Positions 12,579 through 61,394 of a stretch of DNA of 64,000 nucleotides are shown here, in pieces. The DNA is taken from contig CASDVP010000007.1 of NCBI GenBank assembly GCA_949284445.1, positions 19,107 through 83,106 of the forward strand, written 5' to 3'. The notes below the pieces were generated by a model. It worked only from the letters and a program-made list of their open reading frames with translations, was not told the origin of the DNA and did not search any database. The stretch comes from an uncultured Bacillota bacterium (GTDB lineage Bacteria; Bacillota_I; Bacilli_A; RFN20; CAG-288). Made by a program: the position numbers and the translations under genes. Each line of letters begins with the position of its first letter. Position 1 is the first letter of the stretch.

Positions 12579-12593
12579 ATTTAACAAGATAAT

Positions 12594-12667: not shown

Positions 12668-12736
12668 ATCAAGCGCCTTAATAATATAAATTAAAGAAGT
12701 GAATTAAGCAAGTATTATTATAGTTGAATCAGTTGA

Positions 12737-13558
12737 CTAAATTGGTGTTTGATCATGATTTATCAGACTTTTAATAGAAATTATTTCTTCGATAATTGCT
12801 TTAAATGACATAAAGCAAAAAGCGGTGATACACAAAGTGAAGAAGCATTGTGATAGGGAGTGATTAGAAAACATTTTTCCACTCATATCTGAAAAGCCTA
12901 TTGTTGTAAACAGAATTATAGAAATAGTGATCAGAAAGATGTTGATGATAGATATTGTTATGAAACGATGTAGCTTGTTGTTTGAATTTTGCTTTATCAG
13001 TATTAGCAATGGAGATGAGAATAGCGACAGCGCACTTATCGCTATCAGCCAAGATGGTCCTAAAAAATTGTTTTCTACACTATACATAATTAGGTTAGAA
13101 ATGACCATGAGATTTGATGCCATTCCAAAACTATATTCAGTGATCAGCAAGTGATAAGTTTTTCTATCATTTGAATGATAAGTCTTCAGTTTAATAAAAG
13201 CTGGTTTATAAATGAAGAAGAAAATAATCAAAAATTCTATGCAAGCCAAAATGCCTAAAATATAAAGAATAGTTGAACCAAAAGAGTTGAAGGACAGAAA
13301 ACCTAAAATCATAAAAGGTAGTAATAATATGACCTCTTTAATAATTGATATTATGAAATACAAAATTTGGATATTTTCTTTGTCTCTATATGCATAAACA
13401 TAAAGTGTTTGTAAACAACATAAAACAATGACCGGAATGAAGAAGAGAAGCGTGATAGATGAAAAAGACGTTATTAAAAAGTAGATGAAATAAATCAGTA
13501 ATAGAAATGTGATCAGTGAGTTGATGGTGAATAGCATGATATTTTTTAGATTTTTCAT
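12737..13558 (-). CDS. Polytopic membrane protein, hypothetical.
   Basis: 273 aa with 7-8 hydrophobic segments and no recognisable motif. Separated by only 4 nt from the upstream gene at 13563..14849. Confidence 0.45.
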   Translation of the reverse strand: MKNLKNIMLFTINSLITFLLLIYFIYFLITSFSSITLLFFIPVIVLCCLQTLYVYAYRDKENIQILYFIISIIKEVILLLPFMILGFLSFNSFGSTILYILGILACIEFLIIFFFIYKPAFIKLKTYHSNDRKTYHLLITEYSFGMASNLMVISNLIMYSVENNFLGPSWLIAISALSLFSSPLLILIKQNSNNKLHRFITISIINIFLITISIILFTTIGFSDMSGKMFSNHSLSQCFFTLCITAFCFMSFKAIIEEIISIKSLINHDQTPI

Positions 13559-13562
13559 ATAT

Positions 13563-14849
13563 CTATATTTTGTTATAGACTACACTAAAAGTATATTCTG
13601 TTTTAGATAAATTGTTTGCAGCAGTTATATATCTTACATTAGTATCATTAACCCAAGAGAATGTGATTGAAGTAGCTGACCAATTTTGATAGATATCTAC
13701 TGTGTTTGATTGGCGAGCTGCTAATTTAAAACTTTTAATATCTCCTAATCCTTCCCAATCTCTAGCGTGTTCTTCAAAACACATTTTAGTATTGTACTCA
13801 ACAGTAATGTCAAAATTATTAGGATTGAATACTTCAATAGTCCAAAAACTACTGTTCCACCAGAATTTATCAGTAAAATCATATAAATGGAGTTGTAAAA
13901 AATTATCCATAGCTATTGATATCGAAATGGTATTTATACCTCTAGTTAAATCAACTGGTAAGCATGGCATAGTTTTTGGATTAAACTTATAATTATAAGT
14001 AGAGACGATGTCTAATCCTGCATAGTAATAGGCAGCAAAAATAAGTTCAGAACAATACCAAGAAGGGGAATTGATATCCGTTCTTGTATATTTAAACTCA
14101 AGTGGATTCGGCTCATATGGCTTGCCTAATTGCTGTGAGATAAATTCTTTTGCGACTTTAGTAGCACCTAATTCACCCGCTCGATAAATTCTGTAGATTG
14201 TAACGCCGTAGTCCAAAACTCTTGTATCATCTACAAAGCCATATTGCACGCCACCAGCAACAGCTTCAACTGTTTGGATATAATTACCATAATCACTATC
14301 CTTCGAGTTATTATAAACAAATGCCACATGTTTTAAATCAAAACTGGCCATAGCTTCAAAAACTATGTCACCAGTTTGGATTACTGAATAATCATAGTTA
14401 GAGTAAACTGGTTTTCTTTTAAAATATTTTTTATTTGTTTTATTTGGCTCTCCAATGTCACTATCTAATATATAATTTGCATCTGTAGAGCTAGAGTTGG
14501 AACTAGCACTTAGAGGATTTATAAATGGATAATCATTTGAACATAAAAAAATGATAAATTCATCAATTGAATACTGGTGCTCATAGTACAAATCAACAAA
14601 CATATCATAAGAGACAGGTTCGAAATCTGTATTTTTTTCTAAATAAATATCATAATAATATTCAAATAAGTCAAGATAACTAAAGACTTCTTCACCAGTA
14701 TATTTTTGTGTTTTATTATTCTGGTTTGTTTTTCTTATATTCGAAACAACTTTATTAGAGGCGCATTCATTCTTGCTTGTAGATAAATTTGCAGAACCAA
14801 GAGTCAGCAAAGAGGTAAACACAAAGAAAATAAATTTTGTATTTAACAT
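13563..14849 (-). CDS. Secreted protein with a permuted papain-fold (NlpC/P60-superfamily, YiiX/YaeF C92-like) amidase/acyltransferase domain.
   Basis: N-terminal signal peptide (MLNTKFIFFVFTSLLTLGSANLS). The order TGDIVF...HVAFVY (His) then ...SPSWYCSELIFAAYYYAG (the YCSE Cys motif) places His before Cys, as in permuted NlpC/P60 members. Confidence 0.5.
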   Translation of the reverse strand: MLNTKFIFFVFTSLLTLGSANLSTSKNECASNKVVSNIRKTNQNNKTQKYTGEEVFSYLDLFEYYYDIYLEKNTDFEPVSYDMFVDLYYEHQYSIDEFIIFLCSNDYPFINPLSASSNSSSTDANYILDSDIGEPNKTNKKYFKRKPVYSNYDYSVIQTGDIVFEAMASFDLKHVAFVYNNSKDSDYGNYIQTVEAVAGGVQYGFVDDTRVLDYGVTIYRIYRAGELGATKVAKEFISQQLGKPYEPNPLEFKYTRTDINSPSWYCSELIFAAYYYAGLDIVSTYNYKFNPKTMPCLPVDLTRGINTISISIAMDNFLQLHLYDFTDKFWWNSSFWTIEVFNPNNFDITVEYNTKMCFEEHARDWEGLGDIKSFKLAARQSNTVDIYQNWSATSITFSWVNDTNVRYITAANNLSKTEYTFSVVYNKI

Positions 14850-15094: not shown

Positions 15095-16144
15095 ATGAGC
15101 GAAGAAGAGAAGAAAGAAGTCGAAACTACTGCCCCTGCTACTGATGTCATGGCTAGCACAGTCCATGCTGAGACTGATAGAGTTGTCAGTCCTAAAACCT
15201 TATTAGATGCCGGTTGCCATTTCGGACACCGTGTCTCTCATTGGAATCCGAAGATGAGACATTTCATCTATGGCAAGAGAAACAATCTCCACATCATCGA
15301 TTTAAACAAGTCTGCTGAACAGATTCAAACCGCTTATCATGCTTTAAAGGACATCGTTTCTAAAGGTGGTAAAGTCTTATTTGTCGGCACTAAAGCCTAT
15401 GCTCAAAAAGCTATTCAAGAAGAAGCTGTTCGTTCTGGTTCTTTCTATGTCTCACATAGATGGTTAGGCGGAACTTTGACCAACTTCAGAACTATCTGCA
15501 AACGTATCGCTTTACTCAAAGAGATCGAACAAGAAGAATTGACTGGTGGTTTTGATAACCTCTCCAAGAAAGAAGTCGCTGAAAAGACCAAGTTAAAGAA
15601 CAAGCTCAGCCAAAACTTAGAAGGTATCAAAGAGATTAGATTACTTCCTAACGCTTTAGTCGTTGTCGATCCTAAGACTGAACACAACGCTGTCGCTGAA
15701 GCAAGAGCATTACATATCCCTGTTTTCGCTTTAGGTGATACCAATACTGATCCTGATGAGATCGATTATTTGATCCCTGCTAATGATGATGGCGAAGCTT
15801 CTATCCGCATCGTCGTCGGTTTATTAGCTGATGCTGTTGTCGAAGGTAAAGGCGGTGAACCCTTATATGCTTATAAAGATGCTGAAGCTGCTTCTTCCAC
15901 TATGGCTGAAATGCTCAAAGCTGTCGATCCTAATGAACAGATCAAATCCATCCGTTCTAAGCTCAGAGATGATGCTATCGCTATGAGAAAGAGCGCTAAA
16001 GGTGGAAGAGTCGTCAGAAGAAAAGTTAATAAGAATTTTAAAAAAGCTCCTGCTAGAAGCAAAGAAGCTAACTCTGCTGAAGCTCCTGCAACTGAAAAAC
16101 CTGCTGAGACTACTGCTGAAGTTAAAACTGAGGAGAGCAAGTAA
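15095..16144 (+). CDS. rpsB: 30S ribosomal protein S2, with an N-terminal extension of about 30 aa and a C-terminal Lys/Ala/Glu-rich extension of about 90 aa.
   Basis: S2 core (LLDAGCHFGHRVSHWNPKM...VSHRWLGGTLTNF). AAAGGAGG RBS 7 nt before the ATG. TAATG overlap with tsf. Confidence 0.95.
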   Translation: MSEEEKKEVETTAPATDVMASTVHAETDRVVSPKTLLDAGCHFGHRVSHWNPKMRHFIYGKRNNLHIIDLNKSAEQIQTAYHALKDIVSKGGKVLFVGTKAYAQKAIQEEAVRSGSFYVSHRWLGGTLTNFRTICKRIALLKEIEQEELTGGFDNLSKKEVAEKTKLKNKLSQNLEGIKEIRLLPNALVVVDPKTEHNAVAEARALHIPVFALGDTNTDPDEIDYLIPANDDGEASIRIVVGLLADAVVEGKGGEPLYAYKDAEAASSTMAEMLKAVDPNEQIKSIRSKLRDDAIAMRKSAKGGRVVRRKVNKNFKKAPARSKEANSAEAPATEKPAETTAEVKTEESK

Positions 16145-42881: not shown

Positions 42882-45842
42882 ATGAAATTAAAACTCAATA
42901 AACTTACGCCTGGTAGGATAGCTCAACTCATCGGTGCTGGTGTATTATCAATCGCCTTTATAGCTGGCACATGTGTAGCAGCTTATTATGCACCTATGAT
43001 CACCACGTTCTTGTGTGGTACTGGTGTCAGTTTCGAAACTGAAGAATTCAAACAATCTGCTAAATTATCTGATCAACTTTGTCAAGAAGTTGCTGAAGAA
43101 GGTGTTGTTCTTCTTAAAAATAAAGACAATGCTTTACCAATCAATACCGACAAAGTGAATATCTTCGGTTGGAGAGCTACTGATCAAGGCTTCCATCTCT
43201 CTGGTATTGGTAGTGGTGCTTCTACTATCAATGAGAATAAGAAGGTCACTTTGTTAGATGCATTTGAAAAAGAACATATCGACTATAATAGCGAATTGAT
43301 TGATTTCTATAATAGCTATGATTCTTTTAATGGTGGATATGGCACTGGCAATGGTGAACGTATGACCTTCAGAGAGCCATCTCTAAGCGATTATAGTGAT
43401 GAGTTATGGGCAAATGCCATTGACTATTCTGATACTGCAATTGTTGTTCTTTCTAGAGTCTCTGGTGAAAACGTCGACGAAATTCCGATGTATCAGAATA
43501 AAGCTCATCAATCTCGTGATAATGATAGACATTATCTTGAACTCACTACTGAAGAAGAAGCTTTGCTTCAAAATTGTCGTGAGAATTTTGATAAAGTCAT
43601 CGTCTTATTAAACACATCCAATCAAATGGAATTAGGTTTCTTAGACGAATATGATATCGATGCCTGCTTGTTAGTCGGTCTCACTGGTCAATCTGGTGCT
43701 TTAGCTATTCCTCGTATCTTAAAAGGTGATATCAATCCTTCAGGTCGTACAACTGATATTTATCCATATGATTTGACTTCTGATCCGACATTTAATAATT
43801 ATGCTAGAAGTGGAGATCATGTCACCTATGTAGAAGATATCTATTATGGTTATAAATACTATGAGACAAGATATGCTAACGACGAAAATGGTTATAAAGC
43901 TGCTATCCAATTCCCGTTCGGATATGGTTTATCATATACTGATTTTGACTGGAATCTCGATAGTATGACTATCGATGGTGAAGAATATGATGTCTCTGGT
44001 TATAATGATACAAAGCCGATTGAATTAAGCAAAGATACAGAAGTGGAACTTTCTTTCAGCTGTCATAACAGCGGTGCTGTTGATGGTGCTGATGTCATTC
44101 AACTCTATGTCAATGCGCCATACACTAAAGGTGAAATTGAAAAACCAGTCACAAAGTTAGTCGATTTTGCTAAGTCAACCAGTGTTCCTGCTGGTAAATC
44201 TCAAACTGAGATCACTATGTCATTCACCGCATATGATTTAGCTTCTTATGACGCTTATGATGCTAATGATAATGATGCTGCAACTTGGGAATTAGATGCT
44301 GGTGAATATTCTCTTAACTTTATGGATAACTCTCATGAAGCTAAGACGATGACATCAGATGGCAATGGTATCAATTCTTTAAAGTTCGAAGTCAAGAATG
44401 ATATCGTCTATGATACCGATCCGGTAACCGGTAATGAAGTCACCAATCGTTTCACTGGTGCAGATGCAATCGCTGGAGTTCCTATCGATGGAAGTACTGT
44501 TTTCAGTCAACCAGTCGATTATTTATCTAGAGCTGATAATTTTGCTAACTTACCTAAAGCTCAAGGACAGCCTTCTAATTCTAATGAAGTTTCTAAAGCT
44601 AATAATTATAGTAACACCGGTTTTGATCAAACAGAGATGCCTACTCTCGATCAAAATAATGGTCTCTATCTCCACACTCGTAAAGATGGTAGTAAGGCTA
44701 CATTAGAAGAATTAAATGGCAAGAACTTCACTGAAACAGGTCCTCTTGCATATAACGATGAACTCATCAATGAAATCGGTGCTAATTATGATTCTGAAAA
44801 GCTTGATCAACTTGTCGATCAATTAAGTGCCAATGATGCTTGTAAAATAGTTGAGGATTCCGGCTTTGGTTCTCCAGCTGTTGAATCTATCGGTAAAGCT
44901 CGTGCTTATGACTTTGATGGTCCTGCTGGATTCAATAGTAACACCCAGACCGGTGTCACTTCAGGTGAGTGGACTGCTTATCCTAATCAAACGTTAATCG
45001 GTCAAACCTTCTCTAAACGTCTTGCAAAACAGATCGGCTTATCAATGGGTGCTGAAGGAAAAAATACTGATTTACAAGGATGGTATGCTCCTGTTGTCAA
45101 TCTCCATCGTTCACCATTCAATGGTAGAAACTATGAGATGTATTCAGAAGATCCAGTCTTAAGTGGTAAATTAGGTGCTCAGACTATCGATGGTGCTAAG
45201 GCTAATGGTGTCTATTGCTTCCTTAAACACTTTGGTCCGACAGAACCTGGTCAAAACTCTCGTAATCAAAACTCTTGGATGACTGAACAAAACTTACGTG
45301 AAAATTACTTCAAAGCTTTCGAACTTGCTGTCAAAGAAGGTGGATGTAATGCTGTCATGTCTTCATTCAGTTCTTTAGGTGGTGTTTGGACTGGTGCTAA
45401 CAACGGTATCTTCGTTGATATCTTAAGAAATGAATGGGGATTCAGAGGTTGTGTCTTAACTGACTGGTGCGATGGCGGCGGTAACATGAATTGCCACGTT
45501 GGTGTCAGAGGTGGAAATGACATCTGGCTCAATCCTAATGTCGGTAATAACAGGAGTAAATTAGACAGAAGCAATCCTACTGAAGTCTATTGCGCAAAGC
45601 AAGCTGCTAAGAACGTTATCTACACTATTTGTAACACTAGATACTATTCACAAACCTATGATCATTCTCAAGATGAAATGGTCTTCCCGATCGGTGAAGC
45701 AAGTATCAATGTTCCATTTGCTTGGTGGATTCCAACTTTAGCTGCTATTGATGTCGTGATGATCGGTGGTTCTCTTGTCTGGGCTGGTTTCACACTCTTC
45801 TATCATAAAAAAGAGAAAGAAACTGAACAAGAACAGAACTAG
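42882..45842 (+). CDS. Glycoside hydrolase family 3, with a domain-permuted order (alpha/beta sandwich, then Fn3-like, then catalytic barrel) and predicted TM anchors at both termini.
   Basis: N-terminal signal-anchor (IAQLIGAGVLSIAFIAGTCVAAYY). GH3 alpha/beta-domain motif EEGVVLLKNKDNALPI. Catalytic barrel near the C-terminus (KHFGPTEPGQ...; GFRGCVLTDW). C-terminal TM segment (WWIPTLAAIDVVMIGGSLVWAGFTLFY) with a charged tail. 986 aa. Confidence 0.85.
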   Translation: MKLKLNKLTPGRIAQLIGAGVLSIAFIAGTCVAAYYAPMITTFLCGTGVSFETEEFKQSAKLSDQLCQEVAEEGVVLLKNKDNALPINTDKVNIFGWRATDQGFHLSGIGSGASTINENKKVTLLDAFEKEHIDYNSELIDFYNSYDSFNGGYGTGNGERMTFREPSLSDYSDELWANAIDYSDTAIVVLSRVSGENVDEIPMYQNKAHQSRDNDRHYLELTTEEEALLQNCRENFDKVIVLLNTSNQMELGFLDEYDIDACLLVGLTGQSGALAIPRILKGDINPSGRTTDIYPYDLTSDPTFNNYARSGDHVTYVEDIYYGYKYYETRYANDENGYKAAIQFPFGYGLSYTDFDWNLDSMTIDGEEYDVSGYNDTKPIELSKDTEVELSFSCHNSGAVDGADVIQLYVNAPYTKGEIEKPVTKLVDFAKSTSVPAGKSQTEITMSFTAYDLASYDAYDANDNDAATWELDAGEYSLNFMDNSHEAKTMTSDGNGINSLKFEVKNDIVYDTDPVTGNEVTNRFTGADAIAGVPIDGSTVFSQPVDYLSRADNFANLPKAQGQPSNSNEVSKANNYSNTGFDQTEMPTLDQNNGLYLHTRKDGSKATLEELNGKNFTETGPLAYNDELINEIGANYDSEKLDQLVDQLSANDACKIVEDSGFGSPAVESIGKARAYDFDGPAGFNSNTQTGVTSGEWTAYPNQTLIGQTFSKRLAKQIGLSMGAEGKNTDLQGWYAPVVNLHRSPFNGRNYEMYSEDPVLSGKLGAQTIDGAKANGVYCFLKHFGPTEPGQNSRNQNSWMTEQNLRENYFKAFELAVKEGGCNAVMSSFSSLGGVWTGANNGIFVDILRNEWGFRGCVLTDWCDGGGNMNCHVGVRGGNDIWLNPNVGNNRSKLDRSNPTEVYCAKQAAKNVIYTICNTRYYSQTYDHSQDEMVFPIGEASINVPFAWWIPTLAAIDVVMIGGSLVWAGFTLFYHKKEKETEQEQN

Positions 45843-48529: not shown

Positions 48530-51385
48530 TTAAGCGTTGTCTTCTGGTTGATCTTTCTTGGATTTCTTGTTGAGGATGTACATCAACCAGCAATAACCAA
48601 TTCCACCTAATGATAAGACGAAGACAAGACAATCGACAGTGATCAAGACAGGTCTCCACGGGAATGTCCAGGCTGTACTGGCGATCAGATCACCAGAATC
48701 ATTGACTTTATATGATTCATCGACTGCCCAGGAATTAGTGATCGCATAACAGATGTTTTTAGCAGCGCGATGGATGTAATATTGCATGGTTTTATCGTTT
48801 TGATAATCAGTGAGTTGCCAGTTGCTTTGATTGGTGTTTAACCAAATATCTGTGCCAGCCCATAATCCGGAAACGATATCTTGATAGAACATTGCAGAGA
48901 CACTGGCTTGGTCGGTGATGACCATTCCTTTAAATCCCCATTCATCTCTGAGCAATTCGGTCATCGCACCTCTATGAGCACCGATCCAACGAGAACCGAT
49001 TCTATTCATAGCAGCCATCAAGGCATTGGTTCCACCTTCGACTGCACCTTCAAAGCCTTTGGTATAGATTTCACGGATAGCTTGTTCATTAGCGAAGATC
49101 GCACCACCATAACGATTGGTTTCCTGATCGTTTAAGAAGAAGTGTTTGGTATAAGTGATGACACCTTTGGATCTCAAGCCTTCGACTTCACTTTTTGCCA
49201 TCTCATATGAGAGATGGGCATCTTCAGAATAATATTCAAAATTACGACCGGAATATGGTGAACGATGGATATTAGCACCAGGGCCATAGACACCAGCGAC
49301 ATTGATTGAGATGGTATCTTGACCAAATAAGACACCTAAATCATGGATCAGTTCAACGTTCCAAGTGGAAGCCATCAACACTTCAGCCGGCCAAGCCATT
49401 GAACTGACACCGCTGACTAATGTTCCAGAAACACCGCTAGGTCCATCCTTATCTTGAGTAGGTGGCAAACCGATTTTGTCGATTTGAATGGTAGAATAAC
49501 CGCCTAATCTGATGAGTCTAGTCATCTGTGAATAAGATAATTGATTGACTAAGTCATCCCATTTTGGATCATCATAAGGAACACCGATTAAATCTTTGAC
49601 TGAATATGAAGTAGATGTGCTGTTTTGAGTGAATGTGAAATTATTGATCGCTTCATCATCTTCAGTATCAGTGTTTACATCGTAAAATGGTAAGTCATCA
49701 AGTAGATCTTGGCTAGCATTCCATGAGCCATTAGAATAAGTTGTTGGATATGTACCTCTCCAATCACTTCTGGATAAATATTTGTATTCAGATTCAGAAT
49801 AATAGTTTATATCTACATCTTCAAAGAGGTTTGTGATCTCTGTACCTGTGTCTGAGGTGCTATAAGTAGTTGAATCAGTGCTTTCTTGGTTGAATGCTAC
49901 TTTTGCAAAAGAGCTGTTACCATCATAGTCCATGCCATCAGCAGTGGTCTTTCCCTTCAAAGCGAGAATATTGTTTAAAGCATCATGAGCATTTCTACCG
50001 ACGGATAAATAATAATCACCTGGAGTCAAGACATAAGTTTTAGCTGTTTGATAATCATAAGAGGTCAAATCTTTTTTATCGACGGTGATAGTGACATCGG
50101 TTTCAGCATCTTTAGCTAATTCAATAGTTTTGCTGAACCCGACTAATTCGACAGATGAAGTTTCTACTCCACCTTTTGTATATGGCTTTTGCGCATATAG
50201 TTCAACAACATCTTTTCCGGCTCTATCACCGGTGTTTTTGACATGAACGGTGACATCAAATGATTTTTTATCATCGCTTTCAGTCACTGAGAAGTTAGAC
50301 CATTCAAAAGTTGTATAGCTAAGACCATATCCGAATGGATATTGGACCTCAGAAGTATAGTCATAATCACCAGCATTTCCTTGTCCGAGGACTCTATCTT
50401 CGTATCTGGTCTCATAATATCTATAACCGACATAGATACCTTCACCATAGACTAAGTATTTATTTCCTCTGTCGACATTGCTGTTAGTGATGTTGTAATC
50501 TCCGAAATTTTGGATTGAAGGAGCGCTTTTTGAATCATAGGCATAAGTATCGACTAATCTTCCTGAAGGATTGACATCGCCTTTTAAAATATTAGGAATC
50601 GCATACATACCTTCTTGACCAACACCGCCAATCCAAAGGGCAGCTTTGATGTTTTCGTATGCAGGATCTTCTAAGACATCTAGTTCGATCGGATTATTAG
50701 TGTTGATGACAAGAATGACTTTGTCAAAATTATCGCAAGCTAATTTTAATAAGTCACGTTCGTTTTGATCGATTTGTAAATAAGTATATCCAGTGTTTAA
50801 ATCAGCAGTCGGAATATCGGCGCTCTCTCCACCGCTTCTTCCTAAAGAGACAACGGCTACATCATCGTCTTTCAAGGAACTTATCACTTTATCAGTGTAG
50901 ACGTTTTGTGGAACTTCATTGACAGCAAAGTCACCCTTTCCAGATTGATCGGGAGTCTTTTTACGATAACCTTTGCCAGCGCCAGAAGTGTAGAAATTCC
51001 ACAATGTTTCATTGACTTTATAGCCTTCTCGTTCAAATGCGCTCTTTAAAGTCGGTGCATTAGCTGTATCAACTGATCCTGAACCAGAGCCACCATAGAC
51101 GAAATCAACTGAATTCTGACCTAATAATGCAACATTAGTCTCAGCAGCTGCTAATGGTAAAGCATTATCTTCATTCTTTAATAAGACAGTGCCTTCATCA
51201 GCGACTTCTTCACACAATTTTTTGGATGCTTCACTAGCAGTATAATCACTTCTAGTGAGATAAACATCGAGCAGGTTTTGATATTGATAAGCAAATATTG
51301 TTCCTACAATCAAAGCAGCAGATAAGATTCCACCTATTGAAGTTGTGATGATCGCTGCTTTCAAAGAGACTTTTCTCTTTTTCAT
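48530..51385 (-). CDS. Glycoside hydrolase family 3, paralog of the 42882..45842 gene. Same permuted, doubly membrane-anchored architecture.
   Basis: N-terminal TM (AAIITTSIGGILSAALIVGTIFAY). EEGTVLLKNEDNALPL. Catalytic barrel near the C-terminus (KHFFLNDQETNR...GFKGMVITDQ). C-terminal TM (VLITVDCLVFVLSLGGIGYCWLMYIL). 951 aa. Confidence 0.85.
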   Translation of the reverse strand: MKKRKVSLKAAIITTSIGGILSAALIVGTIFAYQYQNLLDVYLTRSDYTASEASKKLCEEVADEGTVLLKNEDNALPLAAAETNVALLGQNSVDFVYGGSGSGSVDTANAPTLKSAFEREGYKVNETLWNFYTSGAGKGYRKKTPDQSGKGDFAVNEVPQNVYTDKVISSLKDDDVAVVSLGRSGGESADIPTADLNTGYTYLQIDQNERDLLKLACDNFDKVILVINTNNPIELDVLEDPAYENIKAALWIGGVGQEGMYAIPNILKGDVNPSGRLVDTYAYDSKSAPSIQNFGDYNITNSNVDRGNKYLVYGEGIYVGYRYYETRYEDRVLGQGNAGDYDYTSEVQYPFGYGLSYTTFEWSNFSVTESDDKKSFDVTVHVKNTGDRAGKDVVELYAQKPYTKGGVETSSVELVGFSKTIELAKDAETDVTITVDKKDLTSYDYQTAKTYVLTPGDYYLSVGRNAHDALNNILALKGKTTADGMDYDGNSSFAKVAFNQESTDSTTYSTSDTGTEITNLFEDVDINYYSESEYKYLSRSDWRGTYPTTYSNGSWNASQDLLDDLPFYDVNTDTEDDEAINNFTFTQNSTSTSYSVKDLIGVPYDDPKWDDLVNQLSYSQMTRLIRLGGYSTIQIDKIGLPPTQDKDGPSGVSGTLVSGVSSMAWPAEVLMASTWNVELIHDLGVLFGQDTISINVAGVYGPGANIHRSPYSGRNFEYYSEDAHLSYEMAKSEVEGLRSKGVITYTKHFFLNDQETNRYGGAIFANEQAIREIYTKGFEGAVEGGTNALMAAMNRIGSRWIGAHRGAMTELLRDEWGFKGMVITDQASVSAMFYQDIVSGLWAGTDIWLNTNQSNWQLTDYQNDKTMQYYIHRAAKNICYAITNSWAVDESYKVNDSGDLIASTAWTFPWRPVLITVDCLVFVLSLGGIGYCWLMYILNKKSKKDQPEDNA

Positions 51386-52821: not shown

Positions 52822-53010
52822 ATGGCAGTACCTTTTAGAAGAACTGGTGTCACCGCTAAGAGATTGAGAAGAACTCATTTTGTTTTAAAAGCTACCAATA
52901 CTCAATCTTGTTCTCATTGTGGTGCACAAATCCAACCTCACCGCGTTTGCCCTAATTGTGGTTTCTATAGAGGCAAAAAGGTTATTGAAGTTAAATCTTC
53001 CGCTGAATAA
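52822..53010 (+). CDS. rpmF: 50S ribosomal protein L32.
   Basis: MAVPFRRTGVTAKRLRRTHF...CSHCGAQIQPHRVCPNCGFYRGKKV is typical L32 with Zn-ribbon cysteines. GGAGGA RBS. Confidence 0.9.
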   Translation: MAVPFRRTGVTAKRLRRTHFVLKATNTQSCSHCGAQIQPHRVCPNCGFYRGKKVIEVKSSAE

Positions 53011-53088: not shown

Positions 53089-53547
53089 ATGACACATGAA
53101 GAAGAGATCGGTCTTTTGACAGGTGAATATTTACAGGTGAGCCAATATGCTTTATATACAGCTTTTAAAGCTACAAGTTTATATGTTCAGAGCTTAAGAA
53201 ATGATAATTATCGACACGGGTCTGAAGAAGTCGACTTAGCTTTATCTGAAAGCGATAGACTAGTGAAAGAATTCCAAGGGAAAAGCCAAGCTGAAATACT
53301 GTCCTATTTTGAGAATAAAGGATTGTCTGTCAAAGAGATCAGTTCATTAAAAAAGATGTTAGAAAGAAGAGACTATCTGGTCTCTAATTTCTTCATCGAT
53401 CATTCTGATGAATTAGCTAGTCAAGATGTTCAGGCTTATGACAAAATCATCGATGAATTGAACAAGTGGATTGATGAGACGTCTTACTTGAACCGATCAC
53501 TGAGCAAAACAATGAACAAATCGATCGACTCTTTCAGTAAAATTTAG
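53089..53547 (+). CDS. Hypothetical protein.
   Basis: 152 aa, acidic/helical, no motif recognised. GAGGTG RBS. Confidence 0.4.
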   Translation: MTHEEEIGLLTGEYLQVSQYALYTAFKATSLYVQSLRNDNYRHGSEEVDLALSESDRLVKEFQGKSQAEILSYFENKGLSVKEISSLKKMLERRDYLVSNFFIDHSDELASQDVQAYDKIIDELNKWIDETSYLNRSLSKTMNKSIDSFSKI

Positions 53548-53581: not shown

Positions 53582-54868
53582 TTGTTAGGAGCTGTTCAGA
53601 ACGAAATGTTTTATTTTTCACAACTCAATACTGCACTGGATAAAATCATCAATCAACATCGACCTTTTCGCAAAGTTTTTTTCAAAATTTTTGTGAATGA
53701 AAAAATCGCTGCTATCGATCAGAAGAACTTTGTTTCGATCACGCTTGATATCTTAAGAAATTATTTTATTTTAGATTTTGCCTTAGCTGATACTCTTGAA
53801 CACTATCAGAGCAAATCAAAAGAGGCTTTTTTGTTTTTGATCGTTTTATATCTTTTGAGATTTAAAAAAGCCGATGAAGAAGATATCTACGAACAATATC
53901 TTAATTGTAAGACGTTGTTAAGATTAAACGCCGATAAGAATGATTTTACGATGATAGTTAAGCTTTCTAAGCAACCTCATTTATTAAGCGATGAGATCAA
54001 GAGGCATCCGTATTTATATAATTCTTTAATTCTTAATGTTCCAGAATTTTTGTTGCGCAGTTTTGTAGCTGATTTTGGAACTGAGATGGCACCAAAGATC
54101 GCTATCTCTTTGCATTCTAAAGCGGCTTCTTTTTATCTGCCGTATAAGAATGATGAGATCGAATCACCATTATTATCTAAAATCCGTTTATCTTCGAGTG
54201 AATACATCTATCGAGCTATAGATAAGCAAGCTGTTAAGAATGAGATCAAATCAGCTTCTTTAGATGCTATTCCACTAGATTTTTCATTCGCTTATTATCT
54301 TTCTAAAATAGATGAATTTGTTTTGGGATCAAAAGTTATCGCTTTCAATCAAACATCACCGTTTATGTCTTTATATTTAGCGAAGAAATTATCGTCCTGC
54401 TTAGGTAAAATCACTCCGGTTTTTGTTTCCGATGATTCATATAGATTAGCACTTGATATCAAGAAGAAATATCAGGCTGATAACTATTATCCTTTATTTG
54501 CAAAAACTGAACTGGTCAAGACTTATGAAGCCTATGAGGATTTCCAGATCGTTTTATTCGAAGGAAAAGATACTGGAATCGGCAAGATCTCTTCTGCCTT
54601 TTCCCTTTTACCATCTCTGAGAGAGACCGATTTCCAAGCTTCTTATCAGTGCCAACTCTCTGGCTTGATCGAAGCTAGTGATTTTGTTAAACCTGATGGT
54701 TTGCTTCTCTTTTATAATCATTCATTATTAAATGTTGATAGCAAACGAGTGACCACGATGTTTTTAAGAGAAAAGAAGAACTTCACTGTGTTAAAAGAAA
54801 GCTATCTATTCCCGTTTGATCATGATTCCGATGGTGGTTATTTTTCTCTTATGAGGAGAGCATACTGA
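53582..54868 (+). CDS. RsmB/Sun-like protein (NusB-like N-domain plus a Rossmann-fold methyltransferase-like C-domain) with degenerate SAM-binding and catalytic motifs. Probable pseudoenzyme.
   Basis: It sits in the rsmB slot before rlmN, the PP2C gene and the kinase gene. The C-domain aligns by eye to RsmB motifs. Motif I VLDLCAAPGGKT reads VIAFNQTSPFMS. Motif IV FDRILLDAPCSG reads FQIVLFEGKDTG. Motif VI GG.LVYSTCS reads DGLLLFYNHS. Confidence 0.6.
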   Translation: MLGAVQNEMFYFSQLNTALDKIINQHRPFRKVFFKIFVNEKIAAIDQKNFVSITLDILRNYFILDFALADTLEHYQSKSKEAFLFLIVLYLLRFKKADEEDIYEQYLNCKTLLRLNADKNDFTMIVKLSKQPHLLSDEIKRHPYLYNSLILNVPEFLLRSFVADFGTEMAPKIAISLHSKAASFYLPYKNDEIESPLLSKIRLSSSEYIYRAIDKQAVKNEIKSASLDAIPLDFSFAYYLSKIDEFVLGSKVIAFNQTSPFMSLYLAKKLSSCLGKITPVFVSDDSYRLALDIKKKYQADNYYPLFAKTELVKTYEAYEDFQIVLFEGKDTGIGKISSAFSLLPSLRETDFQASYQCQLSGLIEASDFVKPDGLLLFYNHSLLNVDSKRVTTMFLREKKNFTVLKESYLFPFDHDSDGGYFSLMRRAY

Positions 54869-55911
54869 TGAGAAGCATATATTCTTATTCTTTAGAAGAG
54901 CTGACTAGCAAAATGATTTCGATGAATCAGTCTAGCTATCGCGCTAAACAGATTTTTAGTTGGCTTTATAAAAAGAGAGTGACCTCATTCGATGAGATGA
55001 GCGATATATCCAAGGCTTTTTGTGCAGTTTTAAAACAAGAATTTGATTTTTCTTTACCGACTCCGACCGTCGTTCAAGAATCTGCAGATGGAACGATCAA
55101 ATGTCTTTTTAAATTAGAAGATGGCGAAGAGGTCGAAAGTGTCTTGATGCATTATGTCTATGGCTATTCCGTCTGTGTTTCTTCTCAAGTCGGTTGCAAT
55201 ATGGGATGTGCTTTCTGCGCCTCTGGTTTATTAAAAAAGAAGAGAAATCTATTACCGCATGAGATGCTCGGTCAGGTTTTAGCTTTCGATAAACTGTTAA
55301 AAGCGAGAGATCCTGAATTACGTGTCACCCATGTAGTCATCATGGGTACTGGTGAGCCTTTTGATAATTATGATAATGTTCTTTCTTTTATCAGAAATAT
55401 CAATTCCCCATTCGGAATCGATATCGGAGCTAGACATATCACTGTGTCAACTTGCGGTGTCGTTCCCGGCATTTTAAAATTTGGCAAAGAAGGTTTACAA
55501 GTTAATTTAGCGATTTCTCTCCATGCCCCTAATGATGAATTGCGAAACAAATTGATGCCGATCAACCACGCCTATCCGTTAGAAGAATTGATTCCAGCGA
55601 TCATTCAATACAGCAAAGATTCAAATGACAGACGAGTCACTTATGAATATATCATGATCAAGGATTTAAACGATTCTTTAGATTGTGCTAAAGAATTGTA
55701 TGATTTGATAAAACCTACCTTCGGTTATGTCAATCTCATCCCTTATAATCCAGTCATCGAAAACGGTTATGAAAGAAGCCCGAACAATAGAGTTAAAGCT
55801 TTTCATAACTATCTTCTGAAAAAAGGTATAAAATCTACTATAAGAAAAGAATTCGGCAGTGATATCGATGCTGCCTGTGGTCAATTAAGAGCTAAACATA
55901 AGGGGGAATAA
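54868..55911 (+). CDS. rlmN: Radical-SAM 23S rRNA (A2503 C2) methyltransferase RlmN.
   Basis: CNMGCAFCASG radical-SAM CxxxCxxC motif. N-terminal ..YRAKQIFSWLYKK.. Confidence 0.9.
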   Translation: MRSIYSYSLEELTSKMISMNQSSYRAKQIFSWLYKKRVTSFDEMSDISKAFCAVLKQEFDFSLPTPTVVQESADGTIKCLFKLEDGEEVESVLMHYVYGYSVCVSSQVGCNMGCAFCASGLLKKKRNLLPHEMLGQVLAFDKLLKARDPELRVTHVVIMGTGEPFDNYDNVLSFIRNINSPFGIDIGARHITVSTCGVVPGILKFGKEGLQVNLAISLHAPNDELRNKLMPINHAYPLEELIPAIIQYSKDSNDRRVTYEYIMIKDLNDSLDCAKELYDLIKPTFGYVNLIPYNPVIENGYERSPNNRVKAFHNYLLKKGIKSTIRKEFGSDIDAACGQLRAKHKGE

Positions 55912-55913: not shown

Positions 55914-56657
55914 ATGGATATCTCTAGCAAAATCATCGCTCTCAGCGATATTGGTAAGAGAAGGAAAAATAATGAAGATGCTGCTTATGCAGCTTATTCC
56001 CAATATGGTGTTTTACTAGTTGTCGCTGATGGTATGGGCGGACATCGAAAGGGTGAAGTCGCCTCTAAATATGTCATCGATGAGTTATCGATCGAATTTG
56101 CGAGCAATCGTCATATTTTTTCGATCGCATCAGCTCGAAAATTTGTTCATCGTTGCTTAAAAAAGAGCAATCGTGAAATCTATAAGATGTCATTATCAGG
56201 TGAAGAGTATAAAGAGATGGGAACGACTGCAGTGGTCGCTTTAAAAGCCAAAAACGGCACCTATGTGATGTGTTTAGGCGATTCTCGCTGCTATACTTTC
56301 TCTAAGGAGACAGGTCTCACTAAGCAAACGATCGATCAGACTTATGTTGAATTATTGTTTGAAACAGGAAGGATCAATAAAGCTGAGATGCTCACCCATC
56401 CTCAAAAAAATCTTTTGATCAACGCTGTTGGTATCAATCCTGATCTTTCACAGATACAAGAAAAGATCATCGATAACGATTCTTATGACTTTTTGCTTCT
56501 TTGCTCTGATGGTCTTTATAATCTGGTCTCCGAAGAAGAGATCTCACGTGTTTTATCAGAAGATACAACGGTGCCAGAAAAAGCTGAAAAGCTGAAAAAT
56601 TTGGCTTTGGAACACGGTGGAAATGATAATATAGCTGTCGCTTTGTGGGAGAATTGA
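55914..56657 (+). CDS. PP2C-family Ser/Thr protein phosphatase (PrpC/Stp-like).
   Basis: RKNNEDA..., VADGMGGH and GGNDNIAVAL motifs. Confidence 0.85.
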   Translation: MDISSKIIALSDIGKRRKNNEDAAYAAYSQYGVLLVVADGMGGHRKGEVASKYVIDELSIEFASNRHIFSIASARKFVHRCLKKSNREIYKMSLSGEEYKEMGTTAVVALKAKNGTYVMCLGDSRCYTFSKETGLTKQTIDQTYVELLFETGRINKAEMLTHPQKNLLINAVGINPDLSQIQEKIIDNDSYDFLLLCSDGLYNLVSEEEISRVLSEDTTVPEKAEKLKNLALEHGGNDNIAVALWEN

Positions 56658-56658: not shown

Positions 56659-57636
56659 ATGCCAGAAGAAAATCGAATGAATGAAATAATCGATGACCGC
56701 TATAAAGTCGAGAGCGCCTTAGGCAAAGGCGGCATGGCCATCGTTTATAAAGCACATGATCTCATCACTGATAAAGATGTCGCCGTCAAAATGATGAAAG
56801 ATGATACGGCTTCTGATAAAGTCAATCTTTCCCGTTTTGAACGTGAAGCTCGTGCAGCTGCTAGCTTGAATCATCAGAACATCGTCAAAGTGGTCAATGT
56901 CGGATCTTATAATGGTTTACCATATATGGTGAACGAGTTTGTTCAAGGTCAAACTTTGAAACAAGTGTTAGATGTCCGAGGTAAATTTTCCTTTCTAGAA
57001 GCTTGTGACATCATGTATCAGCTATGTTCAGCAGTGATCTATGCTCATCAGCACGGTGTCATTCATCGCGATATCAAGCCTATGAATATCTTTTTAACGA
57101 GAGATGGAACGATCAAATTAGGTGATTTCGGTATCGCAACTTTCCAGAATTCAACCCATGTTACCCGCTCTGATTTCGTCATCGGTTCAGTTCATTATAT
57201 GGCACCGGAAGTCGCACAATCCAATCCGGCTACTGAAAGAAGTGATATCTATTCTATGGGAATCACTTTCTTTGAACTCATCACTGGCCGTGTTCCGTTT
57301 GATGCTGAAAGCCCAGTTCAAGTAGCTGTCATGCAAGCTAAGGACAAGTTCCCTTCCATCAAGAAATTCAATCCTAAGACACCGGAATGCATCGAAGCTA
57401 TCATATATAAAGCTTGCCAAAAAGATCCGTTAGATAGATATTTTTCTGCTGAAGATATGCGCAAAGATATCGAGAGAATTTTAAGAAACACCTCTTTATT
57501 AAAAAAGAAAAGCAGTTTCTTTTATAACCTTTTGCATCCTCATTCACCTGATAATGAGGCAAGACGTGTTGAAAAGAGGCAAAAACGCGCTTTAAAAAAA
57601 GCTGCTAAAGCTGCTAAGAGTGATAAGAATGAGTGA
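56659..57636 (+). CDS. Hanks-type Ser/Thr protein kinase. Catalytic domain only; no TM segment or PASTA repeats.
   Basis: GKGGMAIVYKA...VAVK (Gly loop and Lys). HRDIKPMNIF. DFGIA. APE. 325 aa with a basic C-terminal tail. Confidence 0.85.
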   Translation: MPEENRMNEIIDDRYKVESALGKGGMAIVYKAHDLITDKDVAVKMMKDDTASDKVNLSRFEREARAAASLNHQNIVKVVNVGSYNGLPYMVNEFVQGQTLKQVLDVRGKFSFLEACDIMYQLCSAVIYAHQHGVIHRDIKPMNIFLTRDGTIKLGDFGIATFQNSTHVTRSDFVIGSVHYMAPEVAQSNPATERSDIYSMGITFFELITGRVPFDAESPVQVAVMQAKDKFPSIKKFNPKTPECIEAIIYKACQKDPLDRYFSAEDMRKDIERILRNTSLLKKKSSFFYNLLHPHSPDNEARRVEKRQKRALKKAAKAAKSDKNE

Positions 57637-58516
57637 TAAAATCGTCCTATCATCTGGCTCTTTAGGCTATGAGATATTCGATGTAGAAACCCGTGAGGTT
57701 TCTTTACATAGATCACGAGGAAATATTTCTTATAAAGGTTCTAACATCTTGATAGGAGATGAAGTCTTATTGGATAAAAGTGGTTTTATCTCTGGAATTG
57801 TTCCCCGAAAAAATGTTCTTCACCGTCCGAGGCTAGCTAACGCGGACTTTGTCTTTATCGTCATCTCACTAAAAAAACCTGATTTTTCATCATATCTATT
57901 AGATAAATTTCTAACCCTGATCAATTCTTCACATATCACTGTCAAGATCATAGTCACGAAAGTTGATTTAGCTTCTTCATCAGAATTTGAAAAGTTTAAA
58001 TCATATATGTTTTATTATGAAAGAATCGGTTATGATGTGTTTTATCTCGGTAAGAATGATGAATATGATTTTAATAAAGTGAAAGATGTGATCTCAGGTA
58101 AAAAAGTTGCCTTTGTCGGACAGACTGGTGTCGGTAAATCAACATTGCTTAATCGATTATACCCTGACTTCAATCGCAAAATTGATGAATTATATATCAA
58201 TTCTGGGCGTGGTAGACATACTACTAAAGAGGTTATTTTATTACCGCATAATGACGGGTTCCTTTTTGATACACCTGGATTTTCACAACTAGAATTAAAA
58301 GATTTTAAACCGATAGATCTCACGATTTATTATCCTGGCATCAAGGATTATTATGGTAAATGTCATTTTGCGGATTGTCTACATCTTCCTAACACTAAAG
58401 GTTGTCAGGTGCAGAAAGCGATTGAATCTGAGACGATTTCTGCTGAATCTTACAAAAATTACTGTAAAATATATGAAGAGGTGAAATTAAACGATATATG
58501 GAAAAAGAAACTTTGA
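57620..58516 (+). CDS. rsgA: Ribosome small-subunit-dependent GTPase A.
   Basis: Circularly permuted GTPase (G4 TKVDL, then G1 VGQTGVGKSTLLN, then G3 DTPGF). C-terminal Zn finger CHFADCLHLPNTKGC. Confidence 0.85.
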   Translation: MIRMSDKIVLSSGSLGYEIFDVETREVSLHRSRGNISYKGSNILIGDEVLLDKSGFISGIVPRKNVLHRPRLANADFVFIVISLKKPDFSSYLLDKFLTLINSSHITVKIIVTKVDLASSSEFEKFKSYMFYYERIGYDVFYLGKNDEYDFNKVKDVISGKKVAFVGQTGVGKSTLLNRLYPDFNRKIDELYINSGRGRHTTKEVILLPHNDGFLFDTPGFSQLELKDFKPIDLTIYYPGIKDYYGKCHFADCLHLPNTKGCQVQKAIESETISAESYKNYCKIYEEVKLNDIWKKKL

Positions 58517-59172
58517 TTTATCCATCGATCTTATCAGCGGATTTTTTACATCTATCTAAAGATTTTGCTTGCATGATAAAAGCTGGCATCAAAACTGTTC
58601 ATTTTGATGTGATGGATGGCTTGTTTGTCAAAGATATATCTTTTGGGGAGAAATTATTTAAAACGTTATATCAACGTTATCATCAAAAATTAAATTTCGA
58701 TATCCACCTGATGACTGAAGAACCATTTAGACATATCAGGCAGTTCTTAAAGCTTGGTGGCAGTGATTTCACTTTTCATTATGAGAATACTATCAACAAG
58801 TTAAGTGAATTGAAATCATTAAGAGATGAATATCCATATATCAAACTCGGTATCGCTATTTCACCTGATACGGATGTCTCCAGAATTTTAGGATTAGCCA
58901 ATAATTTTGATCAGATATTAGTCATGTCCGTTGTGCCAGGAGCTTCAGGTCAATCTTTTATTCCTGAATCAGTTGAAAAAATCAGGAGGTTAGCTAATTT
59001 TAGAAAAGACAATAATCTTTCATATCTCATCGGTGTTGATGGCGGAATCGATGATAAAACAGGCCCTCTTTGTTTAGAGACAGGCGCTGATTATTTAGTC
59101 ACAGGTTCTTACTTCTTTTCCTCTTCTGATAAAAAAGTTGCTTTAGAAAAAATAGTGAGGAAAGACGTATGA
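58498..59172 (+). CDS. rpe: Ribulose-phosphate 3-epimerase.
   Basis: PSILSADF...HFDVMDGLFV and VMSVVPGASGQSF motifs. Confidence 0.85.
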   Translation: MEKETLIYPSILSADFLHLSKDFACMIKAGIKTVHFDVMDGLFVKDISFGEKLFKTLYQRYHQKLNFDIHLMTEEPFRHIRQFLKLGGSDFTFHYENTINKLSELKSLRDEYPYIKLGIAISPDTDVSRILGLANNFDQILVMSVVPGASGQSFIPESVEKIRRLANFRKDNNLSYLIGVDGGIDDKTGPLCLETGADYLVTGSYFFSSSDKKVALEKIVRKDV

Positions 59173-60120: not shown

Positions 60121-60768
60121 ATGGCTTTTGATCAGTTATCTAAAAAGTTATCAGATAAAGAAGTGCTTGTCTTTTTAGATTTAGAGGGGACACAATTTTC
60201 ACATGATCCTATCGAGATCGGATTAGTGACTTATCAAAAAAAAGATAATCTCTTTATTGAAGAAAAACTGTTCACTTATCAATCATATATCAAGGCTAAA
60301 GATAAGATAGGAAAAGTGGTCTCTAATCTCACAGGCATCACCAAAGATTTACTTTTAGAGAAAGGCAAGACTAAACAGACGGTTCTAAAAGAGATCATCA
60401 ATCTTTTAAGGCCATATTCTAAGAAAAATTTTATCGCATATGGTGAACAAGATTTGAAAATGTTAAAGCATTTCATCACCGATGAAAGTTTCACATCTGA
60501 TTACATCAATCATATCGCTAAGAATTATTTTGATTTTCATCTCTACTTAGCATCGCTGATCTCTGATAACAAAAGCAAATCACCATCTCTATCGAAACTT
60601 GCGGAGTTATTTGAAGTATCTAATTCTAACGCTCATGAATCTTTATCAGATGCTCAAGTATTAGCTGATATTTACCAAGAATTTATCAAGGATGAAGAGA
60701 ATACTGTCGCTATTCTAAAATCATTTTATCCCGATGTCGATGAAGAAAGGATGAGAAAATTGTTATGA
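60121..60768 (+). CDS. DnaQ-like (DEDDh) 3'-5' exonuclease.
   Basis: Exo I LVFLDLEGTQ (D.E). Exo III HESLSDAQVLADIY (H-x4-D). Confidence 0.65.
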   Translation: MAFDQLSKKLSDKEVLVFLDLEGTQFSHDPIEIGLVTYQKKDNLFIEEKLFTYQSYIKAKDKIGKVVSNLTGITKDLLLEKGKTKQTVLKEIINLLRPYSKKNFIAYGEQDLKMLKHFITDESFTSDYINHIAKNYFDFHLYLASLISDNKSKSPSLSKLAELFEVSNSNAHESLSDAQVLADIYQEFIKDEENTVAILKSFYPDVDEERMRKLL

Positions 60769-61394
60769 GAATCATTAATTATCCTGATGGTCGAAAAGCA
60801 GTTGTCAAAAAGGAAAAGCCTTCAAAAGTTGACCGTCGATTGACTGAAAACAAAACCGAATCTGAACGGATCAGAGATAGTATGATCAAAAGAAACATGG
60901 GCATGGCATTTGAGTCCGATGTTTCTAAAAGCTGCGATTTTTATCGTGAAAAAGGACTGGCTGATATTTATAAAAGACCGACGCCTATCAAAGTTGTCAA
61001 AATGAGTAAAACTAAAAAAGGAATGATTGAAGAAGCATATTTCCAAGAGAAATCCACCACTGATTATGTCGGTATTTATAAGGGAAAATATATCGATTTT
61101 GAATGTAAAGAGACCATTCATGATGAAGTTCCTTATCATATGATCAGAGAACAACAATTTCGTCATTTGGAACTCATCACCAAATTAGGTGGGATCGGTT
61201 TCTTTTTGGTTTCATTTAAAAAAGTTCAAGAAGTTTATCTGATGCCAGCGACTATCATTCTAGAAGAGATCAAATTGAAAAAGCATCCCGGTTTTAAAAG
61301 ACAATTCTTTCAAGAGCACGGTGTTTTAGTCAAACGATCTTATTTACCGCCTTACTTGCTTTTAGAGGCGATAGATGAAGCTTTCTTCAATTAG
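60765..61394 (+). CDS. recU: Holliday junction resolvase RecU.
   Basis: YKRPTPIKVVKMSK...AYFQEKSTTDYVGIYKGKYIDFECKET matches the RecU catalytic core. Confidence 0.8.
   Translation: MRIINYPDGRKAVVKKEKPSKVDRRLTENKTESERIRDSMIKRNMGMAFESDVSKSCDFYREKGLADIYKRPTPIKVVKMSKTKKGMIEEAYFQEKSTTDYVGIYKGKYIDFECKETIHDEVPYHMIREQQFRHLELITKLGGIGFFLVSFKKVQEVYLMPATIILEEIKLKKHPGFKRQFFQEHGVLVKRSYLPPYLLLEAIDEAFFN

Follow-up and report, generated by a model that had tools for sequence, protein, structure and literature searches.

An RsmB orthologue without its cofactor-binding and catalytic residues is very probably retained by selection in uncultured Bacilli

A stretch of 64,000 nucleotides from an uncultured Bacillota bacterium (contig CASDVP010000007.1 of assembly GCA_949284445.1), referred to below as the window, contains an open reading frame (ORF) at 53582-54868 on the plus strand that occupies the place of rsmB. 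We take RsmB, also named Fmu or Sun, to be E. coli b3289 and B. subtilis YloM, the methyltransferase that makes 5-methylcytosine (m5C) at C967 of 16S rRNA and whose structures are 1SQF and 1SQG. An earlier reading made from the letters of this DNA (the sequence-only reading) proposed that the ORF encodes an RsmB homologue retained as a pseudoenzyme. Profile alignment, predicted structure, synteny with intact orthologues and selection tests all support that proposal. The following genes lie at the locus.

52822-53010, plus strand: rpmF (L32), upstream of the RsmB-like gene
53089-53547, plus strand: conserved ORF of 152 amino acids (aa), directly upstream of the RsmB-like gene and after rpmF
53606-54868, plus strand: coding sequence of the RsmB-like pseudo-methyltransferase from its probable start to the stop codon TGA at 54866-54868 (hhalign E = 3.7e-62; Foldseek match to 1SQF with a template modelling (TM) score of 0.78)
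54853-54870, plus strand: GAGGAGA ribosome-binding site in the 3' end of the RsmB-like gene, and TGATG overlap with rlmN
54868-55911, plus strand: rlmN, radical-SAM m2A2503/A37 methyltransferase (TIGR00048, 403 bits), apparently intact and highly conserved
55914-56657, plus strand: prpC, PP2C phosphatase (Pfam)
56659-57636, plus strand: prkC, Ser/Thr kinase with a kinase domain only (Pfam)
57620/57641-58516, plus strand: rsgA (Pfam)
58498-59172, plus strand: rpe, ribulose-phosphate 3-epimerase (Pfam)

The RsmB-like ORF exists as listed, with a mechanical start at TTG 53582 that gives 428 aa. The real start is probably ATG 53606, giving 420 aa, because the homologues all begin MF and the window protein then begins MFYFS; residues are numbered from this ATG throughout. 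At the other end the TGA stop codon shares its A with the ATG of rlmN, and GAGGAGA lies 9 nucleotides (nt) upstream of that ATG. Scans around the gene gave a promoter-like count no better than chance and a terminator-like count of 8 against a mean of 3.5. No 16S rRNA gene lies within the 64-kb window. The gene content of the window is that of a Firmicute, with PolC, RecU, the cluster rpsB-tsf-pyrH-frr-uppS-cdsA-dxr-rseP-polC and TGA used as a stop codon, and the nearest genomes are metagenome-assembled genomes (MAGs) labelled uncultured Bacilli. The affiliation with Mollicutes suggested by the sequence-only reading is therefore not established.

Pfam and NCBIfam confirm the downstream block rlmN-prpC-prkC-rsgA-rpe, as the sequence-only reading had it, and the ORF is intact in the slot that RsmB would occupy. 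The synteny of the block is conserved in seven of the related loci that we compared (L001-L007). Intact RsmBs lie in the same slot elsewhere. In L009 and L010 the order is rsmB-rlmN-prpC-prkC-rsgA-rpe followed by thiamine pyrophosphokinase, and in L013 (6001-9195) it is priA-rsmB-rlmN-rsgA-rpe, without prpC and prkC. The degenerate members in L007 and L011 come after gmk-priA, and rsmB following gmk-priA is the Bacillus-type genome arrangement. In L011/L012 (10001-12118) rlmN has been lost and the dead RsmB kept, with prpC as the next gene after it. We also considered loss of def and fmt from beside rsmB as an explanation; this is uninformative, as intact-RsmB loci in related Bacilli also lack an adjacent def or fmt.

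Searches with the window protein alone return little. There is no Pfam match at E <= 1, including to PF01189 (Methyltr_RsmB-F) and PF01029 (NusB), and no match in a sequence search of the PDB. The NCBIfam RsmB equivalogs PRK14902 and PRK10901 give collinear weak matches of 20.5 bits (cut-off 319) and 17.2 bits (cut-off 375), so that neither equivalog cut-off is reached, and neither Pfam nor NCBIfam, when both libraries were scanned, holds a model specific to a degenerate RsmB-like family. These single-sequence Pfam and PDB searches are empty; the link to RsmB was made with family profiles only. Four of five close relatives match PF01189 weakly, the best at 2.7e-08, and a profile of the window protein with its four closest relatives finds Pyrococcus horikoshii Fmu (2YXL) at E = 2e-5 and, weakly, E. 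coli Fmu. A hidden Markov model built from 31 intact RsmBs gives the window ORF 93.5 bits and matches no other ORF in the 64 kb. When a profile of 100 degenerate sequences is aligned by hhalign with one of 32 intact sequences including E. coli RsmB, the probability is 100% at E = 3.7e-62, and the alignment runs end to end over 421 columns. In a search with one degenerate sequence as query (P0067), relatives of more than 35% identity carry PF01189 only, and more distant matches also carry PF01029 and PF22458.

The predicted structure leads to the same protein. AlphaFold2 gives a mean predicted local distance difference test score (pLDDT) of 96.9 with an alignment of intact and degenerate RsmBs. 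Because the intact sequences could have imposed their fold, we repeated the prediction with degenerate sequences alone; the pLDDT was 96.6 and 1SQF was again the first match, with a TM score of 0.78. Foldseek places E. coli Fmu/RsmB (1SQF and 1SQG) at the top, with TM scores of 0.77-0.79 over the full length (about 436 columns) at 11% identity, followed by PH0851, Nop2 in pre-60S particles, RsmF and NSUN4. The model shows the three-part architecture of RsmB, that is, a NusB-like helical N-domain, a central domain and a Rossmann methyltransferase domain. Both domain assignments of the sequence-only reading thus hold. Helices at residues 4-121 aligned with 1SQF give the NusB-like N-domain, though PF01029 finds no match there, and the hhalign result with the full-length structural match places the C-domain on the RsmB Rossmann fold. 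By position and by structure the window gene is an orthologue of rsmB, its direct descendant and not a stray paralogue, as the nearest intact RsmBs from the same search occupy the same slot.

We placed the methyltransferase motifs using three independent alignments: the family profile against 2YXL, a MAFFT alignment with 33 intact RsmBs, and the hhalign alignment of degenerate against intact profiles. All three put VIAFNQTSPFMS, VLFEGKDTGIG and LFYNHS at the positions of motifs I (ILDLCAAPGGKT), IV and VI. The landmarks of the protein, all on the plus strand, are as follows.

53606-53980: N-terminal all-helical domain, residues 1-125 (model helices 4-121; structural alignment to 1SQF)
54008-54055: linker motif PYLYNSLILNVPEFLL (YS.P.WL), common to intact RsmB (alignments and column statistics)
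54335-54370: relic of motif I, VIAFNQTSPFMS in place of ILDLCAAPGGKT, with the Gly-rich loop, Asp and Lys lost (alignments)
54410-54436: strand beta2 and relic of motif II, ITPVFVSDD, with F273 where the ribose-binding Asp (E. coli D277) stood
54518-54526: K305-T306-Y307, family-specific motif near the former motif III (column statistics)
54551-54583: relic of motif IV, VLFEGKDTGIG in place of LLDAPCSATGV (profile alignments and residue mapping)
54707-54724: relic of motif VI, LFYNHS in place of VYATCS, with H372 at the position of the nucleophile Cys375

At the level of single residues, E. coli RsmB and the window protein correspond as follows.

Motif I: D252 to A246
Motif I: C254 to N248
Motif II: D277 to F273
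Motif III: D303 to K300
Motif IV: D322 to E319
Motif IV: P324 to K321
Motif IV: C325 to D322
Motif VI: T374 to N371
Motif VI: C375 to H372

Each of the three losses named in the sequence-only reading is seen. Motif I, D-x-C-A-A-P-G-G-K in the intact enzymes, reads A-F-N-Q-T-S-P-F-M. The Gly and Lys that are invariant in intact RsmBs (G252 and K254) are gone, and with them the Gly-rich loop that binds S-adenosylmethionine (SAM). The D-A-P-C of motif IV reads E-G-K-D within FEGKDTG, with D322 in place of the cysteine, and the T-C of motif VI reads N-H within FYNHS, with H372 in place of the nucleophile. The loss is wider than had been claimed, as the acids of motifs II and III that hold the ribose and adenine of SAM (E. 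coli D277 and D303) are replaced by F273 and K300. A motif II Asp kept within VSDD was considered and rejected, since the alignment sets F273 at the Asp position. In the model the lost residues sit where a class I methyltransferase would have them, at the strand ends of beta1, beta2, beta4 and beta5.

The same is true of the family. When 100 degenerate sequences are compared with 33 intact ones, none of the positions that are 91-100% conserved for cofactor binding or chemistry in the intact RsmBs is conserved in the degenerates. The residues common to both sets are structural (P146, G158, L354, G365, E378, F386, L387, P403, Y412 and A414), and the PYLYNSLILNVPEFLL linker is the best-kept ancestral segment of the protein. 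Elsewhere the window protein has no GxGxG, PC or TC motif in intact form. Its three cysteines (101, 265 and 349) are not conserved in the family, and no column of the 100 degenerate sequences holds more than 14% Cys, so there is no relocated nucleophile.

In the m5C RNA methyltransferases of the NOL1/NOP2/Sun family the Cys of motif VI is the nucleophile and that of motif IV is needed for release, and both are required. Because motif I has lost its loop and motifs II and III their acids, the window protein should be incapable of binding SAM; with both catalytic cysteines lost and no substitute Cys, m5C chemistry is likewise predicted to be beyond it. On the same grounds we predict that C967 of 16S rRNA is unmethylated in the source organism.

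The degenerate protein is widespread. We searched 1.84 billion cluster representatives (clusters at 50% identity) exhaustively with a profile; 1,394 proteins matched at E <= 1e-3, of which 154 reached E <= 1e-10. Of the best 150 matches 133 are full length, and in these we took a census of the motifs. Motif I, the Pro-Cys and the Thr-Cys are all lost in 100 of the 133, all three are kept in 31, and two of the three are kept in two. Relatives thus carry the same losses; one of the checks put forward by the sequence-only reading was to look for them in related Mollicutes. In a midpoint-rooted neighbour-joining tree the 33 intact RsmBs form one clade with no degenerate sequence inside it, and the degenerate ORFs are full length, about 410-440 aa, in all 100 clusters.

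The erosion comes in grades, and two tiers can be distinguished. The less eroded tier has P-[PK]-S-S-x-x-G and x-x-T-[IL]-N, with both cysteines changed to Ser or another residue, and keeps RKPD after motif IV. In the fully eroded tier, which includes the window protein, the PPSS and xxT(I/L)N remnants and RKPD are lost too. The catalytic loss appears to be an old one, because it is common to at least 100 sequence clusters at 50% identity from uncultured Bacilli.

Almost all sources of the degenerate family are metagenomes or MAGs labelled Bacilli, Bacillales or Erysipelotrichaceae, with one genome labelled Treponema; the search with P0067 found no cultured, named carrier, its sources being uncultured only. 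IMG labels some members 16S rRNA (cytosine967-C5)-methyltransferase, and NCBI labels them hypothetical. The IMG labels are automatic transfers from weak PF01189 matches. Among the carriers are GCA_964323775.1 and CALVXU01. Another is a complete 2.86-Mb genome labelled Treponema rectale (CP031517.1, GCA_014984185.1; our locus L006 at 461242-482525). Its block is of the Firmicute type, rpmF-x-rsmB-like-rlmN-prpC-prkC-rsgA-rpe with glgC-glgD-glgA, and its RlmN and PrkC are 80% and 74% identical to those of the window. The two T. rectale type-strain assemblies are listed as discordant in an NCBI curation paper (PMC10228379, Table 8). The CP031517.1 record is probably mislabelled, and it may stem from a cultured organism that carries the dead RsmB.

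We have sought signs of selection on the degenerate gene. Against its orthologue in L005 (85% identical protein) the ratio of nonsynonymous to synonymous substitution rates (dN/dS) is 0.048, a rough value since dS is about 1.8 and near saturation; the neighbouring genes compared in the same way give 0.01 to 0.10, a similar range. The eroded tier has conserved residues of its own. K305-T306-Y307, which is not found in intact RsmB, is conserved at 97-100% and D322 at 84%, and R85, K132, E73 and F360-V361-K362 are also conserved. Thr306 is present in 76% of all degenerates, the less eroded tier included, and because it is already found there it would have arisen early after catalysis was lost. 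In L007 and L011 the RsmF-like paralogues are intact, with both DAPCS and YSTCS; therefore the erosion is specific to this gene and is not an effect of base composition. The gene is kept under purifying selection across divergent lineages, as indicated by full-length ORFs everywhere, the confident fold, for which covariation within the dead family alone suffices, the dN/dS of about 0.05 and the new conserved residues. That this is a dead RsmB orthologue retained by selection is a conclusion in which we have high confidence.

What the protein is kept for is less certain. That it serves a role other than methylation, most likely one on 16S rRNA or in 30S assembly, is taken as a whole a statement that we favor with moderate confidence. 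The specific assembly role, which draws on analogy, is put forward tentatively. The protein would keep a methylation-independent part of the job of RsmB, binding nascent 16S rRNA at helix 31 and the 3'-major domain early in assembly and acting as a chaperone or checkpoint for the 30S subunit. Its partners in expression would be RlmN, PrpC/PrkC and RsgA, a GTPase of 30S assembly whose gene lies in the same block. We infer this role, and with it the binding of RNA or pre-30S particles, because RsmB acts early on 16S rRNA, before S7 and S19 bind (PMC13037946), and because of the NOP2/NSUN1 precedent, in which the catalytically inactive human protein rescues rRNA processing defects (PMC9561284).

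The known systems show how far the analogy extends. The window protein is like RsmB in its slot upstream of rlmN-prpC-prkC-rsgA-rpe, its length, its three-part architecture, the TM score of 0.78 and the structural motifs YS.P.WL, FVK.GG.L.Y, E378, FL and DG.Y.A.L; it is unlike RsmB in that the SAM-binding and catalytic residues are all replaced, the curated cut-offs are missed, evolution is faster and it has its own K305-T306-Y307 and D322. Nop2, or NOP2/NSUN1, is the m5C methyltransferase of 25S/28S rRNA. It shares the NOL1/NOP2/Sun fold, its chains in pre-60S particles rank 4-8 in Foldseek and it offers the methylation-independent precedent; yet it is an active enzyme with intact motifs, its non-catalytic role is known from engineered mutants, and its subunit and target are different. 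We know of no snoRNP (small nucleolar ribonucleoprotein) partners in bacteria. NSUN4 with MTERF4 is likewise a protein of NOL1/NOP2/Sun fold on assembly intermediates of the mitoribosomal large subunit (matches 7OF3, 7O9M and 4FP9), but it keeps its catalytic motifs, has no NusB-like N-domain and works with a partner protein, none being evident for the window protein. RsmF/YebU (m5C1407) shares the catalytic-domain family PF01189, and intact paralogues lie near the block in L007 and L011; it differs in having its own N-domain (PF17125) and a C-terminal PUA domain, whereas the window protein has the architecture and locus of RsmB. Within the Mollicutes, Grosjean et al. report RsmB from the Spiroplasma group but not from the Pneumoniae, Hominis or Acholeplasma-Anaeroplasma-Phytoplasma groups, where they score it as absent (PMC4014445). 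In those latter groups rsmB is counted as lost, whereas in the lineage of the window it is kept as a dead scaffold. We found no paper pairing 'RsmB' with 'pseudoenzyme', and none on a naturally inactive RsmB.

Several observations weigh against an assembly role or against strong constraint, and the near-saturated dS is one of them. Residues of the RNA cleft and N-domain of intact RsmBs are replaced (R4, K103, N114, R178, Q224, K254 and K331), as are residues conserved in the N-domain of the intact enzymes (R4, G48, P90, A93, K103 and N114). Because so many conserved N-domain residues are lost, RNA binding is not to be assumed, and the binding of RNA or ribosomes by the protein is putative. The degenerate proteins are also less basic, with a median isoelectric point (pI) of 6.4 compared with 8.0 for the intact ones, the window protein having 8.1. 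Between the window and L006 the RsmB-like proteins are 32% identical where RlmN is 80% identical, whereas in an intact pair RsmB is 46% identical where RlmN is 70%, so the RsmB-like protein diverges faster. Since it diverges much faster than its neighbours and than intact RsmB, the constraint is clearly weaker than on active RsmB, and the protein might serve a non-ribosomal role. Finally, the scan for a second RsmB covered the 64-kb window of the genome only, and an active copy may exist outside it.

One alternative is that the protein has acquired a new function in which a remodelled pocket formed by K305-T306-Y307, D322, S/T323 and G326 binds another ligand or a phosphorylated partner in PrpC/PrkC/RsgA signalling. 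The strictly conserved new residues lie exactly at the former motifs III and IV, and in the eroded tier the gene is always beside prpC-prkC-rsgA. But the new residues could do no more than plug and stabilize a vacant pocket, perhaps by a Lys-Asp salt bridge, genomes of the L013 type carry the block without prpC and prkC, and neither Pfam nor NCBIfam gives a ligand or domain signature. As a replacement for the assembly role we consider it unlikely. A broader formulation takes in both: an RsmB scaffold selected for a methylation-independent job, either as chaperone or checkpoint of the 30S head (helix 31) or in a new role with a ligand or partner at K305-T306-Y307 and D322, in cells whose ribosomes would lack m5C967. 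This we regard as possible, rather short of probable. We give similarly guarded weight to its corollary, that any new role of the pocket would be tied to the PrpC-PrkC-RsgA module and that across a clade of gut Bacilli the methyl group of C967 would be dispensable and the protein not.

A second alternative makes the protein the non-catalytic partner of a nearby active enzyme, RlmN or one of RsmF type, in the manner of METTL14, Trm6 or MTERF4-NSUN4. The overlap of stop and start codons with rlmN (1 or 8 nt) recurs in L003, L005, L006 and L007, and in L007 (16455-17765, minus strand) and L011 (17296-18588, minus strand) an intact RsmF-like m5C methyltransferase with a PUA domain is encoded 5-7 kb downstream of the dead RsmB. 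The sequence-only reading took the intact ORF and its probable translational coupling to rlmN as pointing to a retained non-catalytic role. The overlap is real, but it says little on function, because it is also found with the intact RsmB of L013, which makes it ancestral gene packing, and because in L011/L012 the dead RsmB is kept without rlmN. On these grounds an obligate partnership with RlmN is unlikely. There is no sign of co-evolution either, RlmN being 97% (L005) and 80% (L006) identical to that of the window where the RsmB-like protein is 85% and 32% identical. Moreover, apart from the RsmB-like ORF, the 64-kb window holds no gene of the RsmB/F family, and neither do the surroundings of the block in L001-L006. 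A partner subunit of any kind is thus, in our view, still less probable than a new function.

The gene might instead be a decaying relic, a slow pseudogene that is without function and has not yet been disrupted or deleted. It does evolve faster than its neighbours and than intact RsmB, the functional motifs of the ancestral enzyme are all lost, and Pfam does not see it. A relic would not, however, be expected to show full-length ORFs of about 410-440 aa in 100 divergent clusters, a dN/dS of about 0.05, a fold predicted confidently from covariation of the degenerate family alone and new residues conserved at 84-100%, nor to be kept where adjacent genes have been deleted, such as rlmN in L011. 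We consider this very improbable.

That the protein is still an active methyltransferase, using unconventional residues or another cofactor, is the least credible of the alternatives: the IMG pipelines that label several members as 16S rRNA (cytosine967-C5)-methyltransferases transfer the name automatically from weak PF01189 matches, the His and Asp that stand at the two former Cys positions of the window protein cannot be accepted as a substitute catalytic pair (His372/Asp322) because even the eroded tier does not conserve H372, m5C enzymes need both the nucleophile of motif VI and the Cys of motif IV for release, and no contact to SAM is left, neither the motif I loop nor the acids of motifs II and III.

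In the laboratory almost every bacterial rRNA methyltransferase can be dispensed with, yet these enzymes are widely conserved, and it has long been asked whether the target of selection is the methyl group or the presence of the protein during assembly. A large natural family with an erased RsmB active site and a kept fold and gene is direct evolutionary evidence for a non-catalytic scaffold function, and it is ready material with which to test that function. If the methylation-independent reading is true, nature has performed a separation-of-function experiment on RsmB across a clade of gut Bacilli. For these lineages, predictions of rRNA modification and inventories of a 'minimal translation apparatus' would be wrong under either label, methyltransferase or hypothetical. 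As CP031517.1 is an isolate genome, an experimental system may exist.

The 152-aa ORF at 53089-53547 (plus strand) is probably all-helical, with no significant match in Pfam or NCBIfam. It is found at the same position in L001-L006 with 35-81% identity and a dN/dS of 0.06, and its distribution is that of the fully eroded RsmB tier; L007 and L011 instead have a different ORF of 168/178 aa with an acidic tail after priA. The PrkC of the window comprises 325 aa, consisting of a kinase domain and a short basic tail in which Pfam finds no PASTA domains. The kinases of the related loci are likewise short (295-328 aa); PrkC of B. subtilis has PASTA domains.

Elsewhere in the window, a stretch at 8000-14000 has a G+C content of 28-29% compared with about 35% for the whole, and may be an inserted island. 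It contains two genes for ATPases of the AAA_14/DUF4143 type on the minus strand (9277-10491 and 10745-12184) and ORFs without a Pfam match at 12737-13558 and 13563-14849, and it flanks a tRNA gene at 12594-12667 on the minus strand. Two GH3-family glycosidases are confirmed at 87-1589 and 42882-45842, both on the plus strand. In the second, of 986 aa, the domain order is permuted, with the C-terminal half of the profile at residues 58-469 and the N-terminal half at 679-863. A 951-aa ORF at 48530-51385 on the minus strand is taken for a candidate third member, only on the ground that L005 has a GH3 gene in its homologous flank. A stand-alone DEDD exonuclease of 215 aa (60121-60768, plus strand) resembles the exonuclease domain of PolC and lies directly upstream of recU (60765-61394). 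Lastly, the 349-aa ORF for ribosomal protein S2 (15095-16144, plus strand) has its Pfam S2 domain at residues 36-251, which leaves a C-terminal extension of about 100 aa.

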